A stretch of DNA of 38,839 nucleotides from UHGV virus genome UHGV-0037042; one strand, given 5' to 3'. Positions within the stretch are counted from its first letter, which is position 1; each line of letters opens with the position of its first letter. The notes under the pieces are model-generated. The model saw only the letters and a list, made by a program, of their open reading frames with translations, had not been told where the DNA came from and did not search any database. Origin of the DNA: a virus. Positions 20,438 to 30,117 of the stretch are shown in pieces. The position numbers were made by a program, and so were the translations under genes.

Positions 20438-20583
20438 AGGGACAAGAAGAGACACTCAAGGTAACACTCAAGGGTCATCCCAACCCTTAGGGAACCCTCA
20501 AGGTCAACTGAAAGTTGACTTTAGGTGATTGGCTGGGCTTTAGGTACCCCTATGGGGGAACTTTAGGTCCGTACACTGTGAGA
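20438..20583 (-). repeat. Single collapsed copy of the terminal repeat. The mature left end is at 20583 and the right end at 20438.
   Basis: The revcomp reads TCTCACAGTGTACGGACCTAAAGTTCCCCCATAGGGGTACCTAAAGCCCAGCCAATCACCTAAAG...GTGTCTCTTCTTGTCCCT, which is the T7 left-end start and TR end as remembered. Right-end unique sequence lies on one side and left-end repeats on the other. Confidence 0.7.
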
Positions 20584-20972: not shown

Positions 20973-21126
20973 GAGTCTCCTCCTTTATGTTGGTCTTTAA
21001 GTTAAGGTGATATTAATACAATATAATCACCATTCTTAGAGGTCACTTTAGGTACACTACTATGCATACTTTATGCACTCTATAAGTATTCATTCAGTAT
21101 CTATATAGTAACCTTTCGTCCCTCCT

Positions 21127-21149
21127 CTCCCTATAGTGAGTCGTATTAA
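21127..21149 (-). promoter_or_regulatory. φOR promoter
   Basis: Exact consensus (revcomp) between gene 19 and 19.5. Confidence 0.95.
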
Positions 21150-23001: not shown

Positions 23002-23445
23002 TTACTTGATTTCCTGCTTACGTTGCAGTTCACGAATAGTATCTTGTAACGCACGAATCCATGCGTCACCCTTTTGGGTCACTGCGAGAATACGCTTAGC
23101 ATCTCGCTCGTCAAGTTCGGCTCGACCATCAGGCTCGAATCCACACTGACCATCGGAGGCTCCGGTAGTTTTGATTCTGACGCGCAACCGCTTATTGTCG
23201 CTACGCAAATCAGAAATAATCCTATCAGTGCTCCCCTCCAGCGCGGCAAGGTCTTCTTGATACTTAGCCGATATTTCATTGAGTGCTCTTTGAGTGCTCG
23301 CTGTAGCCTCAACTTTCTTAACGTACTCATTCTGTACCTCCTGTTTCCACTTGGCATCCATTGAGTCTGCCCCAAGTTGCCATCCCCATCCGAATAGCAT
23401 CCCAGCGAGAACCCAAGGGACCAGCTTACGTAAAAATTCCAGCAT
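23002..23445 (-). CDS. 18.5: i-spanin (Rz-like) gp18.5
   Basis: 147 aa with an N-terminal TM segment and coiled-coil. T7 18.5-like. Confidence 0.9.
23079..23330 (-). CDS. 18.7: o-spanin (Rz1-like lipoprotein) gp18.7, embedded in 18.5 in the +1 frame
   Basis: 83 aa from [10 protein letters not shown]..., with lipobox ATISGC. Lies entirely inside gene 18.5. Confidence 0.85.
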   Translation of the reverse strand: MSTLRKLRLQRALKEHSMKYRLSIKKTLPRWRGALIGLFLICVATISGCASESKLPEPPMVSVDSSLMVEPNLTSEMLSVFSQ

Positions 23446-23496
23446 AATGCCTCCCGTTAACTTTCAGATTTCACGTAGGAGCATCTCGTATAGACA

Positions 23497-23544
23497 ATGA
23501 CATCCATAAAGACCACTACATATAGTGGCCTTGAGCATATCACT
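23497..23544 (-). promoter_or_regulatory. RNase III site R18.5
   Basis: CATCCATAAAGACCACTACATATAGTGGCCTTGAGCATATCAC between genes 18 and 18.5. Confidence 0.7.
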
Positions 23545-23809
23545 GTAATGTGTAAATATCGTCATCCGTAAGACCGTTATCACCGACTTTCTCTTTGTAC
23601 TCTTCAAGAGCACCAGCAAGGCCGCCCAAGATGTGAACATCCGGCTGCAACTTACCAATCTGGAACTTGTGTCGGTCTAACAGTTTGTTAATAGCATTAT
23701 AGAGTTGCGGAGTCCGACGCTCATCATTGGATAAATCAGCAAGCATACGCTGAGCCATCGCAGTGTCCAACATCTCTAAGAATGTAATAAGGCTCTTATC
23801 CTTTTCCAT
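23540..23809 (-). CDS. 18: Terminase small subunit gp18
   Basis: 89 aa from MEKDKSLITFLEMLDTAMAQRMLADLS..., with a GGAG RBS. The track ORF begins at an upstream GTG. Confidence 0.9.
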   Translation of the reverse strand: MEKDKSLITFLEMLDTAMAQRMLADLSNDERRTPQLYNAINKLLDRHKFQIGKLQPDVHILGGLAGALEEYKEKVGDNGLTDDDIYTLQ

Positions 23810-23814
23810 ATGTT

Positions 23815-24018
23815 TCACTCCTTATTGGCTCTCTTCCAGTCAATCATCTTATCGACTACCTTGGCACCAATCTGAACCACTGTGTAGGCGATAGCGGCAA
23901 CGTAGAACCATTCGTTTAGCGACAATCCAAAGAAGAGACGGGCTGCACCATCAGCCACACCCGTCCCTACAATCGGAGCCGCCTTTACGATTTCGTTGTT
24001 GAAATCTAAAGACAACAT
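23815..24018 (-). CDS. 17.5: Class II holin gp17.5
   Basis: 67 aa MLSLDFNNEIVKAAPIVGTGVADGAARLFFGLSLNEWFYVAAIAYTVVQIG..., T7 holin-like. Confidence 0.92.
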   Translation of the reverse strand: MLSLDFNNEIVKAAPIVGTGVADGAARLFFGLSLNEWFYVAAIAYTVVQIGAKVVDKMIDWKRANKE

Positions 24019-24032
24019 TTAGTTTACCTCCA

Positions 24033-24416
24033 TTATCCCTCCCTAAGCGCACGAAGTTCAACCATCAGAGCCTCAAGGTCTGCTTGGATTTCCTCAGGTG
24101 TACGTTTAGGTGGCTTAGGGATATCCTCGAAGGACTCCCCGTTCCAAAGTTTAACACGTTGCCACTCAGGGTCGAACTCATCGGTGACAATCACCAGACC
24201 GCCCTCAGGTGGCGCATAAGTGCCGTTAACAGTACCATCGGAGAACCATGAGATGAATCCGTTCTTATCGATACCGACGACCCATCTCTCAGGTCGGTCC
24301 TCAAGTTCAACCATGAGTTCATACCAATCGGTCCCACAAGAGGCCGTCACGTCATAAGTGGCGATACCACCGTAAGCGGTAGTTACTTCGTATGTCCAGT
24401 TAGTAAATTTACGCAT
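24033..24416 (-). CDS. Hypothetical 127-aa protein between tail fibre and holin; possible tail-fibre assembly/chaperone-like accessory
   Basis: Clean ORF with a TAAGGAGA RBS 7 nt after the gene 17 stop. Compact operon spacing (ATG 14 nt after the upstream stop). No counterpart at this position in T7. The C-terminus (EEIQADLEALMVELRALREG) is helical. Confidence 0.75.
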   Translation of the reverse strand: MRKFTNWTYEVTTAYGGIATYDVTASCGTDWYELMVELEDRPERWVVGIDKNGFISWFSDGTVNGTYAPPEGGLVIVTDEFDPEWQRVKLWNGESFEDIPKPPKRTPEEIQADLEALMVELRALREG

Positions 24417-24425
24417 AATGTCTCC

Positions 24426-26090
24426 TTATTGGGAAGCAACCAATCGTTTATTACCGTTGTGATATCCAAGCCAAAGCGCTCGGAAGAATGCACCCGCAAC
24501 GTTACCGCTACCATCAGCGGTTACACCAGAGCAGGCTTCCCCAGCACCAGCAACTATGTCTGCATAACCTCCCCACTTTTGTACCCAGCGTTGAGGCCCC
24601 CAATAAACATCGCCGGGCCAGTTAGCCCTAATCCAATCATCAAGGTATCCGGTATTATACGCAGTACCCCAAATTCTACCATCAGGGTCAAAAGAGCCAT
24701 TCCGTACAACCACACGTCCACCATCGGCCCAAATCTCCCCAGGGACGCGGAAGTCTCCATTGGTATTGAACGTCCAAAGTTTATCACCTGCCCCTTCGTC
24801 TTTCATATGTACGTGGAATGACGGAGACGTACCAGTCAGTAATGTACCGATAGACCAGCATCCTGCCCACCGTCCAGATTGGTAAGTTCGTTGCTTTATT
24901 ATTGGGTGATATGAGCTTGTAGACTGTACATGAATCTGTTGGAAGAAAGGAGCTTTAGTGTTATACTGGTCAGCGAAAGCGTGAGCTATGCGATCATCAG
25001 CATCTGACTCTAACACACCGCCAGCTATTGTTAACTGATTAAGTCGAATCTGGTGACGATGTTGCCCAGTCTTGTCCGCTGCATACTCTATGAACCCTAT
25101 ACCGTCCGGTCGGTCCATAGCGAAGTCAGACTTAAGGAAGTCGCCTTCTTCCCAAAGATCCATACGGAACCTAAACGCGTGGTTCGTTTGTAGTTGGTAT
25201 ACGGGACCTCCGACCCAATAGCCGCTTCCTTTCCAGAATACACTATCACCCTGAACACTATCTACAGCACCAGCAAGTCCGTTCCAGTTACCAAGTTTAT
25301 CAGCCTCACGCTCGGCGCGGTCTGCTTGCTGTTCTGCCAGAGTAGCAGAGTTAGCGGAAGCAGTTGCGGAGTTAGCAGCGTTCACCTCAGATTGATGTGC
25401 GGCAGTAGCAGAGTTCCCAGCAGATGTAGCATATTGACCAGCCGTATTCTTGAACTGTTCGGCCTCATCTCGGAACCCCTTAGCCTCATTACGCCACTGA
25501 TTGGTATTCGAAGCGTTAGTGCTGGACTCGTTCTTAAAGCCCTCCGCTTGATTACGGAAAGTCTCAGCCTCATTACGGAACTGTAAGGCTTCATTACGAG
25601 CTTGCCATGAGTTCTGGTTCATGGTCTTAAGTTGACCAAACGGAACAGCGTCACGGTCGTCCACGGCGTTTGCTAGGTTGACGATACGACGACCACGAGC
25701 ATCCAAGTGACCATCATTATTGACACCAATCGTATCAGCAGTTAGGTCACGAGCTTCTTCTGCTACATGCATTGTCTGAATCTGGGCCACGTTAAGGTCA
25801 TAAGCACGGAGGATTGAGCCATCCGTAAAGTCGACCAAGCGGTCTGTAGTGGAGGTTACTCGACGCAACTCAATGGTTGTATAACCATCGGCTGGACCCC
25901 AAGCCTTGGTCAGAGAGATGGTAGTGCGTGTAGCAAAGCGATAGTCTGTATTAATCGTAAGGACCTTACGGTCTACGCCAATAAGAGTTACCACTACGAA
26001 CTTACGGGCTAGATACTCAAACGGAATATTAAAATCACGCGTAGAGCCATCCAGCGGGTAAGTCAAAACGGTCTTAATTACGTTAGCCAT
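24426..26090 (-). CDS. 17: Tail fibre protein gp17 (T7-like N-terminal ~270 aa, divergent distal part)
   Basis: 554 aa. The N-terminal adaptor and coiled-coil region matches T7 gp17. Sequence after ~KLGNWNGLAGAVD...VFWKG is unrelated to the T7 distal domain. Confidence 0.93.
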   Translation of the reverse strand: MANVIKTVLTYPLDGSTRDFNIPFEYLARKFVVVTLIGVDRKVLTINTDYRFATRTTISLTKAWGPADGYTTIELRRVTSTTDRLVDFTDGSILRAYDLNVAQIQTMHVAEEARDLTADTIGVNNDGHLDARGRRIVNLANAVDDRDAVPFGQLKTMNQNSWQARNEALQFRNEAETFRNQAEGFKNESSTNASNTNQWRNEAKGFRDEAEQFKNTAGQYATSAGNSATAAHQSEVNAANSATASANSATLAEQQADRAEREADKLGNWNGLAGAVDSVQGDSVFWKGSGYWVGGPVYQLQTNHAFRFRMDLWEEGDFLKSDFAMDRPDGIGFIEYAADKTGQHRHQIRLNQLTIAGGVLESDADDRIAHAFADQYNTKAPFFQQIHVQSTSSYHPIIKQRTYQSGRWAGCWSIGTLLTGTSPSFHVHMKDEGAGDKLWTFNTNGDFRVPGEIWADGGRVVVRNGSFDPDGRIWGTAYNTGYLDDWIRANWPGDVYWGPQRWVQKWGGYADIVAGAGEACSGVTADGSGNVAGAFFRALWLGYHNGNKRLVASQ

Positions 26091-26140
26091 TTGACCTCCT
26101 TAAAGTAAATCTAAAATACTACAGGGAGAAGACCTTCTCC

Positions 26141-26163
26141 TCTCCCTATAGTGAGTCGTATTA
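26141..26163 (-). promoter_or_regulatory. φ17 promoter
   Basis: Exact consensus (revcomp), overlapping the gene 16 stop. The leader contains a GGAGAAG/CTTCTCC stem. Confidence 0.95.
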
Positions 26164-29100
26164 TTTCCGACGCTCCTTCAAGTTGACACCGTTGGCCTCA
26201 TAAATCTTCAACACAAGCTGTTGAGTCAGAGGGTCGTTAGGTACTAACTCTTTTGTAGAGTTCATTAAGCCAGTCATGAAGTCCTGCTCGGTAGCCTTGT
26301 TTGGGGCATTAACCACACCAGCAGTGTTCAGTAGGGTAGCACCAACGTTAGCCACAAAGCCAGCCGAAGGCATCTGCTCCAGAAGGTTTGAACCCATAGC
26401 ACCCATTACCTCCCACGAGGTGTATGGCTTGTTAGGGTCTCGTTTCTTCATGGTGTCCTTAGGCAGAATCGTGGAACGAGCCATCTTAGAGGACTCGACA
26501 CCGAACGCACCACCGATAAGGTCAGCCATAGCTAAAGGTGCACCCAATTGAGAACTACGAGACAAGGAAGCGTGAGCAATCATGGTTGGGTCAAGTGCTC
26601 GCTCTAAGTACTCCTTACGTTTCTCCTTAGGCATTCCGTATGCTTTGACGTGTGCAGCCATTGCATAGTAGCCACCAGCAAGCCCCATGGAGATGATACC
26701 TGTCAAGGCAGCATCAACCGCACGGCTATTCTTGTAGCCATCATAGAAGAGCTTGATGAACTTAGAGTTCAGCGACTTGATGGTAAACGATTTGAACTGC
26801 ATTACCATCTTACCAAGCGCACCAAAAGCATGGGAATCCTGTAAGGACACCTTATGTGGACGCAGCATCGCTTCATCTGCAACCTTATCAGCAAGTCGCC
26901 ACAGGTCCATAGCCCTAGGGTCCATAGAGAACGCTTGTTTGTCCTTGACAGTGTACTTACCGTCCTCACCGCGAACCATGTGTTCCTTGATGAGCGCCTT
27001 GATTCCTTTCATCTGTTCAGGCGTTACCGATGCACCACGGAGGAATCCTTCCTTCTCCCAGCGAGTAGTCTTACCAGATAGGGTGGCACTAATCACATCC
27101 CCAAGCATACCTTGACGGGCAGCATCAAGAAGATAGTTAGTGGTCCCATTAAGCATCTTCGTCCACGGAGAACGAGCAGCCAATTCCTGTGTGGAATACT
27201 TCAAGGTCCCTACGATGTTCGCAACCATCGGTCCTGTATCAGTTGCCTCCCGCAGTCGCTGAACAATGTCAGCACGTTTAGGCCGAATCAACTGGTCCAC
27301 TTCCTTCCCGAACAGAGACGCATGGAGTTCCTTGAGTTCCTTAGCGGAAACTGGTTTAGACTTATAGAGAGTATCACGAAGAATCGGAATACCGTGACCG
27401 AGAGCACGGACGTTACCAGTAGCAATCATCCCAGCAATCTCAGTAAGGTTCTGAGCACCCATATAGGCGTTCTTAGCGAAGAACCCTAAGTCATTGATAG
27501 AACGCAGTGAGGTTTCCCAAACTGTGTCGTGATTACGTCGAGCACGTCCGGTGAGAATCTTAACGGTATCCATAAGAGCATGAACCTCGCCAGTCTTCTT
27601 ACCGTTACCCTCAGCACTTGCTTTGAGAGCTAGAATCTCGTCCTTAAGTTCCTGAGTGGTTTTACCGGTAGACCCCATGATAGCAATGTCGCCATTGATA
27701 CGACGGTCATATGCAGGCATGATGCGGAACATGTCGAAGTCCCTTAGGTCATTCACGGCAAACTGTTGTCCATCAGGCATCGTGATAGATAAGTCAGAGT
27801 CAAACAAGTTACGAGCTTCAAGGAACGAGTTGTTCTCAATACCTACTAGGCCCTCAATGTTCTCTTCAATCACAGAACTGTTAGTGAACTGGTCTGAATG
27901 AGAGATACCGTATGCCTTGTCCATAGCGTACTTCTCAACCATCTCCGGCGTAACTTCCTTTACCCCATGAACTTCCTTGAGCATCTCATCAACACGTGCT
28001 TTGACCTCAGGGCGGGAGGCATAGCTGTTCAACCAAGAACGGGCAATACCTTCCTGTAACCCTTCGGCACCGTACCGTTGAATCATCAGAGCCTTGGCGT
28101 GACGGTCGTAAACGTGCGGGATGTAGGTTCCTTTATGGCGACTCTCAGGGAAGATGCTTACAGCCTTCGTATTACCGAAGATTGCTGGATTCTCCATGAG
28201 TTCACGCTTAGTATCAAAGTGGCGCTTAATGATGTCCATTACGATACGCTCAGACGGAGTGAGAACCTTCTGTAGTTCTGGACGCTCAATAGCCAATGCC
28301 GCTCTACGGTAGATAGTGTAACGAGCCTCTTCTCGTGACATCTTAGAGCCACCCGTAGAGAACTCAGGGTCTTTCATAGCGTCTGACATTGCTTTGTACA
28401 GGTCGTTGTAGGTTCTCTGGTCGGTACTGTGGAGTCTCTCGTGGATGTCAGATGCAGTAGCCCCAAACTTACCTGAGGCACCCGATTGCATCCCAGTAGG
28501 AGAACGCACAAGGTCAATCGCTATCCTGCGAATATTGGCATCGTCAGACCCTAAGGTCTTCAAGCCAATCTCAGTGAACCCTGCCAGTTTAACGCCCCAC
28601 GCAGCCTTCTCAGGGTCAACCTCAGAGAACTCTTTGAGTGTCTTAGGGTTGATTGGGTTACTTGCGCTAATCACAGAACCGTCATGGAGTACCACAGCGC
28701 CCTTCTCAGTAGGAAGGTCTTCATAAGGTACACCATTGTGCTCACCTTCAAACTTCATGTTTTCTGTGTTCATCCGAGAGAGGTCCGTAGAGTTAGCGTT
28801 ACGCGCTGTCTCACGGGCTTCCATTCGCATCATAGGGCCAATGAACTCATTGTCGAACTCGGCTTCTGGTTTACCACGTTTGAGTCCAGCAGCTATAGCG
28901 TCACTGATTGCAGACATACCAGCACCGAACACAAAGCCACCTAAGGCAGCACCTGCATAGTCTGAGTCACCACCAGCCACAGAGGTTAGAAGTCCTTCGG
29001 AGGCTACGTTAAGTGCTGCACTCTCAGCGCCTACAACAAGTGCCTTATTGATTAGCTTAAAGCCTTTACCAGTTACACCGACCATCGGAACGTAGCTCAG

Positions 29101-30117
29101 CGGGTCCACACCAGCACCAATAACACCAGCACTCAGCTTAGCACCTAGACCAGCATCAGCAGCGCGGGAGTCAGCCTCAAAGTTCTCGTTGGCTAGCTTA
29201 ATGAGGGCATCAAGATTCTCAGGAGAACCACCAGTCACCACGTTGATGTACGCAGGGTTCTTAACCTCGGTTCGAATCTTCTCTAACTCTTCTGGAGTCC
29301 AGATGTGAGAGTTCCAGCGAGTCGGCGTAATGGTGTCTTTAAACACATCAAAACCATTATCGAGACGACCAGCACGGAAAGCCATCCCAGCGACTGAGTT
29401 GGAGAGTTCAGCTTCGGCAGCATCTTTGAATCCGAAGAAGGTTGAACGATTGTTGTACTCGTCAAGCGTTTCTCCGTGGGTCTCCCAAAAGTCCTTGGCG
29501 AATGGTTTCGCCGGAGCCTCCTGTTCGATACCCTTAACGTCGAAACTTGTGGACTCAGGAAGTTCCTGTGTAACCTTCTGCTTATGTCCAATACCAGCAA
29601 GTCCTACCTCAGCCGGAATGCCTTTACCCTTTGGGGTGATACCACCGAATGCTTCCAACTGTCCAGCCATAGGAGACTTGGCAACATCCAGAAGATTACG
29701 TAGGTAGTTTCGTCCCTCCTCGGAGATAGCCGAGAAGTCACCCTTAGAGTATGCCTCAAGTTGAGGATTCCCCAAGCGTCCCTCACCTTGGTTATACGCA
29801 AGGGCAGCTTTAAGTTCATCGCCATCAAACTTACCAACCAGACCTGCAAGGTGCTTAGCGGCAGCGTTGATAGCCAACTCAGGGTTCAGTCGGTCATCGT
29901 CTGGACCATCAGTAACGCGCAATCCCATTGCCTTGGCGGTTGCCTTGGTGAATTGCATCATACCTAAGGGTCCAGTCTTAGATTTAGCTGTTGGTTGGAA
30001 TCGTGATTCTGTCCAAGCGACTTTACGTAAAAGGTCATAAGAGACCCCGTTGGCATCAGCCGCCTTTTGGAACAGACCATCATAATCACTTGGTACGTTC
30101 TTATCGTACTTATCCAT
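26161..30117 (-). CDS. 16: Internal virion protein D gp16 with N-terminal lytic transglycosylase
   Basis: 1318 aa, same length as T7 gp16, with the N-terminal SLT motif (...VAWTESRF...). Confidence 0.97.
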   Translation of the reverse strand: MDKYDKNVPSDYDGLFQKAADANGVSYDLLRKVAWTESRFQPTAKSKTGPLGMMQFTKATAKAMGLRVTDGPDDDRLNPELAINAAAKHLAGLVGKFDGDELKAALAYNQGEGRLGNPQLEAYSKGDFSAISEEGRNYLRNLLDVAKSPMAGQLEAFGGITPKGKGIPAEVGLAGIGHKQKVTQELPESTSFDVKGIEQEAPAKPFAKDFWETHGETLDEYNNRSTFFGFKDAAEAELSNSVAGMAFRAGRLDNGFDVFKDTITPTRWNSHIWTPEELEKIRTEVKNPAYINVVTGGSPENLDALIKLANENFEADSRAADAGLGAKLSAGVIGAGVDPLSYVPMVGVTGKGFKLINKALVVGAESAALNVASEGLLTSVAGGDSDYAGAALGGFVFGAGMSAISDAIAAGLKRGKPEAEFDNEFIGPMMRMEARETARNANSTDLSRMNTENMKFEGEHNGVPYEDLPTEKGAVVLHDGSVISASNPINPKTLKEFSEVDPEKAAWGVKLAGFTEIGLKTLGSDDANIRRIAIDLVRSPTGMQSGASGKFGATASDIHERLHSTDQRTYNDLYKAMSDAMKDPEFSTGGSKMSREEARYTIYRRAALAIERPELQKVLTPSERIVMDIIKRHFDTKRELMENPAIFGNTKAVSIFPESRHKGTYIPHVYDRHAKALMIQRYGAEGLQEGIARSWLNSYASRPEVKARVDEMLKEVHGVKEVTPEMVEKYAMDKAYGISHSDQFTNSSVIEENIEGLVGIENNSFLEARNLFDSDLSITMPDGQQFAVNDLRDFDMFRIMPAYDRRINGDIAIMGSTGKTTQELKDEILALKASAEGNGKKTGEVHALMDTVKILTGRARRNHDTVWETSLRSINDLGFFAKNAYMGAQNLTEIAGMIATGNVRALGHGIPILRDTLYKSKPVSAKELKELHASLFGKEVDQLIRPKRADIVQRLREATDTGPMVANIVGTLKYSTQELAARSPWTKMLNGTTNYLLDAARQGMLGDVISATLSGKTTRWEKEGFLRGASVTPEQMKGIKALIKEHMVRGEDGKYTVKDKQAFSMDPRAMDLWRLADKVADEAMLRPHKVSLQDSHAFGALGKMVMQFKSFTIKSLNSKFIKLFYDGYKNSRAVDAALTGIISMGLAGGYYAMAAHVKAYGMPKEKRKEYLERALDPTMIAHASLSRSSQLGAPLAMADLIGGAFGVESSKMARSTILPKDTMKKRDPNKPYTSWEVMGAMGSNLLEQMPSAGFVANVGATLLNTAGVVNAPNKATEQDFMTGLMNSTKELVPNDPLTQQLVLKIYEANGVNLKERRK

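Follow-up and report, generated by a model that had tools for sequence, protein, structure and literature searches.

In phage Mu, the tail fibre assembly protein (Tfa) TfaMu binds the fibre through its N-terminal domain, and its helical C-terminal part is proposed to trimerise, registering three fibre chains, as outlined in the summary of North et al. 2019 given in PMC9608196. The same protein reportedly stays at the tip of the fibre and binds the fibre's own lipopolysaccharide (LPS) receptor, as stated where PMC10579305 cites North & Davidson 2021. Within the genus Teseptimavirus, phages Bas102-104 of the BASEL collection depend on the O16 O-antigen (PMC11990801, section 17), and one of them, Bas103 (EmilieLinder), encodes Gp60, a 'Mu-like Tfa' for which a Mu-like hexamer with the fibre was predicted by AlphaFold-Multimer, according to the legend of S7 Fig in PMC11990801. 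Here we analysed UHGV virus genome UHGV-0037042, a 38,839-nt stretch of DNA (hereafter the window, to which all coordinates refer) that is a Teseptimavirus (T7-like) genome read on the reverse strand. A 127-aa open reading frame (ORF127; 24033..24416, minus strand) lies between the gene for the 554-aa tail fibre gp17 (24426..26090, minus) and the class II holin gene 17.5 (23815..24018, minus) and, as judged from sequence comparison, belongs to a shorter sister family of the full-length Mu-type Tfas.

Like gpU/TfaMu of Mu (PDB 5YVQ chain B; PHROG 136), ORF127 sits directly downstream of the fibre gene and in the same orientation, all genes of the locus being on the minus strand. Unlike TfaMu, it contains 127 rather than 175 residues, ends after one helix and shares ~16% sequence identity with the Mu protein, and it resides in a T7-like podovirus instead of a myovirus and without an invertible G segment. 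The arrangement also recalls the gp37-gp38-t order of T4, in which a small gene stands between those for the distal fibre and the holin; unlike T4 gp38 (6e-45) and lambda Tfa (1.5e-99), however, neither ORF127 nor its family matches PHROG 105. Gp60 of Bas103 occupies the corresponding slot between fibre gene and holin in a Teseptimavirus, and the profile of the ORF127 family recognises its N-terminal domain (21 bits). Gp60, however, has the full Tfa length of 175 aa and carries the canonical C-terminal motif, and its identity to ORF127 is only ~30% over ~57 residues. Near-identical cassettes are already present in public phage genomes. The distal part of the fibre gene and ORF127 share ~99% DNA identity with Escherichia phage C5, and the ORF127 proteins of Escherichia phages 04922B and JB01, Serratia phage UFV01 and AnnaIndermaur (Bas104) are 97.6-99.2% identical to that of the window. 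In Bas104, the Tfa is 97.6% identical and the distal fibre ~85-90% identical from residue ~260 onward, with a different coiled-coil shaft at residues 150-260.

AlphaFold2 modelled ORF127 on its family alignment with a mean predicted local distance difference test score (pLDDT) of 93, yielding a β-rich domain at residues ~1-100 and one long helix at residues 107-126, in line with the helical C-terminus that the original prediction had read from the sequence. A fold comparison of this predicted model returned Mu Tfa as the unique match, with the TfaMu-type N-terminal fold present. Against predicted viral structures, two family members ranked at the top, and six of the next ten matches were 137-199-aa myovirus proteins named tail fibre assembly proteins, the other four comprising two unnamed proteins, one 'baseplate protein' and one 'putative tail fibers proteins'. 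The predicted division of ORF127 also resembles that of Cyanophage Pam3 gp25 (PDB 7YPX), in which the fibre is held by an N-terminal β domain and trimerisation falls to a helical C-terminal part (PMC9608196).

The profile comparisons point the same way as the fold for the N-terminal part of the protein. Eighteen of the 22 ORF127 family members match PHROG 136, with a best value of 4e-16, a family that counts Mu gpU and gpU' among its full-length members (6e-81); since both the relatives and Mu gpU match it, membership of ORF127 in PHROG 136 would be transitive over the N-terminal ~130 profile positions. The family matches span positions ~8-135 of 178, which correspond to the Mu N-terminal domain and the first C-terminal helix, and the terminal helix of ORF127 aligns with that first C-terminal helix of TfaMu. 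The remaining 45 positions, which hold the W..YR..L..VD region common to Mu and lambda Tfa, are absent in ORF127. None of the 22 members was assigned to a family by Pfam or NCBIfam, and ORF127 itself had no Pfam match. In phmmer and profile searches of PDB sequences, ORF127 had no match and its family only a nanobody (E 0.5), the Mu Tfa emerging from fold comparison alone.

Conservation of this short form bears on whether ORF127 is a gene at all. A tblastn search of 50,697 phage records with ORF127 matched 64 of them, and 1.84 billion representatives, searched exhaustively with HMMER, gave ~20 clusters (50% identity) of homologues 113-136 aa long. The lowest-ranked HMMER entries, P0021-P0027, were rejected as spurious: they are long repetitive Big_2, LVIVD and glycosyltransferase proteins that matched through the summing of weak stretches. 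The family alignment contains ten invariant residues, and its best-conserved segment is the C-terminal helix RTKEDI.ADL..L..EL, in which hydrophobic residues at positions 110/114/117/121/124 strictly keep the 4-3-4-3 heptad spacing that a coiled coil requires. If ORF127 were a chance frame, or what is left of a 175-aa Tfa decaying after the loss of its C-terminal domain, this could explain why it is ~45 residues shorter than Mu-type Tfas and devoid of their most conserved motif. However, the length of 125-136 aa, the C-terminal end and the ten invariant residues are kept across the ~20 clusters and 64 phage records, the helix that closes the protein is its best-conserved segment, the ribosome-binding site is strong and the AlphaFold2 model is confident, making a non-functional frame extremely unlikely. 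ORF127 is thus a real, conserved gene on the evidence of these alignments. Divergence at the nucleotide level adds little, as only 3-7 nucleotide differences separate ORF127 from its closest relatives and the ratio of nonsynonymous to synonymous substitution rates is uninformative. In a word-indexed search of 5.8 billion proteins, one 96%-identical cluster was recovered for ORF127 and nothing for the distal part of gp17, and a scan of viral contigs gave six further ORF127 loci, all in already known phages.

In every one of the 12 relatives examined, the ORF127 homologue comes after the fibre gene and before that of the holin. This synteny was seen in the Teseptimavirus phages C5, N30, Pila and Bas104, in the Teetrevirus phages K19PH14C4P1, Koku, phiKp_31 and ViciousJeremy together with Erwinia/Pantoea Studiervirinae, and in the T4-like Erwinia phage Cronus, where the homologue is flanked by the genes for the distal long-tail-fibre subunit and holin t, a position that corresponds to the gp38 slot of T4. 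The fibres of these phages resemble one another at their distal ends: residues 444-553 of gp17 align with the Teetrevirus fibre tip (35% identity, 8e-14) and with the long tail fibre tip of Cronus (30%, 2e-9). From these alignments, the C-terminal tips of the fibres are homologous across the podovirus and myovirus carriers. A profile of the tip further matched the last 65 residues of Mu gpS in hhalign (probability 78%, E 1.8e-5), giving moderate grounds for a gpS-like C-terminal tip in gp17. No self-cleaving C-terminal intramolecular chaperone domain was found in gp17 by Pfam, which reported PF03906 and a sub-threshold YadA_stalk only, consistent with a chaperone encoded by a separate gene.

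These observations also bear on the possibility that ORF127 is an unrelated accessory gene (a moron) inserted between genes 17 and 17.5 and encoding a single-stranded DNA (ssDNA)-binding protein or an anti-defence or exclusion factor. Existing annotation lends it some colour, in that the records of C5, 04922B, UFV01, JB01 and Bas104, the closest ones, label ORF127 'hypothetical protein', several others (MZ428229, MK542821/NC_048164, MN013074, OM103160 and MW600722) label their homologues 'ssDNA-binding protein', and one family member has a weak NCBIfam match to an ssDNA-binding protein (E 0.068). That match is insignificant and confined to one of the 22 members, the fold match of the predicted model is unique to Mu Tfa, and in podoviruses and myoviruses alike the gene always adjoins one for a fibre whose tip is homologous, and varies with that tip. 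We therefore regard an unrelated accessory gene as very improbable, and the 'ssDNA-binding protein' label, for which the insignificant NCBIfam match is the sole support, as almost certainly a propagated annotation error. Some homologues in Klebsiella and Erwinia phages already bear the label 'tail fiber assembly protein'.

Across 12 fibre/Tfa pairs, Tfa identity tracked tip identity with a Spearman coefficient of 0.58, a Mantel p of 2e-4 and a Pearson coefficient of 0.86, the last of which stems partly from near-identical pairs among the 12 related phages. In the same pairs, Tfa identity followed the shaft (0.48) and the fibre N-terminus (0.27) much less closely. The influence of near-identical pairs is one of several points that weigh against assigning ORF127 to the Mu-type Tfas as a fibre chaperone. 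ORF127 alone matches PHROG 136 weakly (E 0.013), and aligning the family with the TfaMu sequence alone in hhalign gave a probability of 0.9% and an E value of 0.058. Caudo_TAP (PF02413), the Pfam family that matches Mu gpU (6.7e-37) and lambda Tfa (2.8e-43), matched none of the 22 family members at E<=1. The family therefore lacks the conserved C-terminal domain to which trimerisation is attributed, and for which a single helix may be no substitute. On the fibre side, a single-sequence AlphaFold2 model of gp17 residues 285-554 reached a pLDDT of 32 and gave no usable fold. Weighing both sets of results, we are highly confident in the homology of ORF127's N-terminal domain to that of Mu-type Tfas, and because the conserved C-terminal domain is absent, we treat ORF127 as a truncated, non-standard member of that group. 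The original prediction of a Tfa-like chaperone travelling with a receptor-binding module is supported by the PHROG 136 matches, the synteny, the resemblance of the fibre tip to that of Mu and the co-variation with the tip.

The fibre that ORF127 accompanies is a hybrid. Residues 1-288 of gp17 (25227..26090, minus) form the T7-type virion-attachment domain and coiled-coil shaft and belong to the unswapped backbone, as indicated by the T7 fibre N-terminal domain PF03906 (~3e-73, full profile length) and by 92.7% identity to T7 gp17 over residues 1-289. The similarity collapses past VFWKG (residues 284-288), the motif after which the original prediction had correctly placed the break, although its estimate of ~270 residues for the T7-like part has to be moved to ~289. 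The solved T7 gp17 aligns with residues 1-299 only, and the T7-type pyramid and tip domains (PDB 4A0T, residues 371-553) were not found by alignment in window gp17 beyond ~299. In blastn against T7, the homologous sequence on the fibre side (88%) stops at 25226 and that on the holin side (92%) begins at 24012, which lies six bases inside the holin gene. The stretch between them is a non-T7 cassette of distal fibre, Tfa and short spacers (24013..25225, minus) in which 1213 bp stand in place of 861 bp of T7. In T7, a 58-nt spacer without an ORF separates genes 17 and 17.5, and neither T7 nor T3 was among the 64 records matched by tblastn, so that the extra gene of the original prediction is indeed an addition to the T7 layout, and the T7 homologue that would have spoken against it did not appear. 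Base composition does not mark the cassette, whose guanine-cytosine content is 0.494 against 0.486 +/- 0.019 in windows of the same size.

Within the cassette, residues ~289-467 of gp17 (24690..25226, minus) constitute a foreign shaft module with no T7 DNA homology, and residues ~468-554 (24429..24689, minus) contain a neck motif and the Mu-type tip, the predicted chaperone docking site and probable receptor-binding end. On the shaft side, residues 369-489 align with residues 686-804 of T4 gp37 (36%, E 1e-11). The distal part had been described as unrelated to T7, which holds for the DNA but not entirely for the protein, because a 48-residue neck motif (DG.I.G....L.D..R) of the new fibre-tip profile matches T7 gp17 residues 430-477 (E 5e-5). 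By this profile match some kinship to T7 persists in the exchanged part, and since the motif is still detectable in T7 gp17, the swap respected a conserved linker.

Comparison with related phages shows that the cassette is itself composite. Relative to C5, identity is 99-100% over 25250..23420, whereas outside this block it falls to 65-93% on the gp17 N-terminal/gp16 side and to 87-98% beyond 23420; counted as differences, the 1179 nt of coding sequence in the cassette contain 12, and the 864 nt encoding the N-terminal part of gp17 contain 98. The C5-identical block runs through the holin and gp18 to ~23420, near gene 18.5. As the block extends past the cassette, the latest exchange with a C5-like phage covered ~1.8 kb and not only the 1.2-kb non-T7 segment. 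Relative to N30, DNA identity is 99-100% over 25245..24705 and drops to ~60% from ~24690 (gp17 residue ~467) through the tip and ORF127, recovering at the holin; this break inside the cassette indicates a mosaic of a shaft module and a 'tip plus Tfa' module, and such natural recombinants agree with the co-variation of Tfa and tip. Pila places the left junction at 25228, as does T7. In independent comparisons the junctions recur at 25226-25257 (gp17 residues ~278-289; T7, Pila and C5) and at ~24690 (gp17 residue ~467; N30), the first at the motif VFWKG and the second at DG.IWG...L.DW.

The signals around ORF127 point to expression together with the fibre. The gap between the gp17 stop and ORF127 is 9 nt on the same strand, and TAAGGAGA, 5 nt before the ORF127 ATG, contains the stop codon TAA (24426-24428), so that the end of gp17 falls within the Shine-Dalgarno sequence of the Tfa gene (24417..24428, minus; TAAGGAGACATT then ATG, by direct reading). 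The strong T7-style ribosome-binding site of the original prediction is thus legible in the sequence, and the overlap suggests coupled translation of gp17 and the Tfa. Upstream, an exact match to the 23-nt consensus of the T7 class III promoter (26141..26163, minus) is equivalent to φ17; the next T7 promoter on the minus strand lies at 21126-21148, beyond gene 19, and no excess of promoter- or terminator-like sequence was found inside the cassette. The φ17 promoter would drive gp17, the Tfa gene, the holin and genes 18-19 as one transcript, and because it lies upstream with no internal promoter or terminator, ORF127 is expected to be expressed late and together with the fibre. A 15-bp perfect stem-loop at 26118-26152 (minus; ACTATAGGGAGAGGAGAAGG TCTTCTCCCTGTAGT), followed by a T-rich run, starts in the transcribed end of this promoter, and the gene-17 transcript would carry it at its 5' end.

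Taking these observations together, we propose that ORF127 is a chaperone for the distal end of gp17, a mechanism that we consider likely as a whole. A short Mu-type Tfa would have been acquired together with the foreign distal fibre module, replacing a T7 tip domain that has no such partner gene, and the two genes would be transcribed late from φ17 and translated in tandem. The N-terminal β-rich domain of ORF127 would bind the Mu-like gp17 tip (~last 65-90 residues), and three copies would be joined through their C-terminal heptad helices by analogy with Mu, giving a putative 3:3 assembly with the fibre. The register of the three fibre chains would then be set at the distal end, and the trimer would fold from tip to shaft, in which case folding of the distal fibre would require ORF127.

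A Tfa-like origin would also be compatible with a main role in the virion, where ORF127 would act as a retained tip cap or co-adhesin that binds or masks the receptor and directly shapes host range. T2-type gp38, retained Mu Tfa and the 'chaperone caps' of Alteromonas phages all exemplify such virion-retained behaviour. The N-terminal domain of ORF127 is its variable part and co-varies with the tip, the loss of the canonical C-terminal Tfa domain could mean a change of role, and the Cronus homologue occupies the gp38 slot, which is adhesin-encoding in T2-type phages according to a note in the T4 record; TfaMu, moreover, is reported to interact with the LPS receptor of its fibre from the fibre tip, in the account given by PMC10579305. 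On the other hand, no similarity to T2-type gp38 adhesins or carbohydrate-binding families was found by Pfam in the 22 members, and a cap is compatible with a chaperone, being more an extension of that role than a true rival to it. We consider a mainly virion-borne function rather unlikely. The same low probability is given to a bolder form, in which the short family, with its N-terminal domain and one helix, is a distinct solution: a three-helix-capped adaptor that T7-like phages and some T4-like ones keep at their fibre tips and that joins or gates O-antigen recognition. If so, host range would be set by the pair of tip and Tfa and not by gp17 alone.

Returning to the chaperone model, the new distal module would be the determinant of host range, and the cassette probably sets the host range of the phage. 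By analogy with related phages, the receptor is probably a surface glycan, either O-antigen or LPS. For the engineering of T7-type phages, this receptor-binding module is probably not transferable as gp17 alone; the natural unit of exchange is the fibre tip with the small gene after it, and the natural junctions at gp17 residues ~289 and ~467 offer two places at which it has been joined. The assignment also corrects the annotation of relatives labelled 'hypothetical protein' or, wrongly, 'ssDNA-binding protein', and a minimal Mu-type Tfa lacking its presumed conserved core domain is a simple system in which to probe the need for that domain. Chaperone-linked tips and fibre mosaicism are well established, and the current understanding of tail-fibre modularity is not overturned.

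The remaining genes of the locus follow the T7 order. Gene gp16 (26161..30117, minus) precedes gp17, and the class II holin 17.5 (Pfam PF10746, 6.5e-35), which is T7-homologous from 24012 onward, forms the right-hand flank outside the cassette, followed by gp18 (23540..23818, minus), 18.5 and gp19. Over positions 1-23838 of the window, ~9% is without a megablast match to a T7 record. A T7-like block with a fibre fragment, a Tfa homologue, a class II holin and a small terminase fragment is embedded in OM982647.1, the 171-kb 'partial genome' of Escherichia phage ST2, which is assigned to Kagunavirus, a genus of small siphoviruses; the record has the look of a chimera or a mixed assembly. Positions 20554-20583 (minus), midway along the window, carry, with 0 mismatches, TCTCACAGTGTACGGACCTAAAGTTCCCCC, which we take to be the left-end sequence of T7; it follows that the window represents an entire T7-like genome in reverse complement and circular permutation, its physical ends being joined near 20583.

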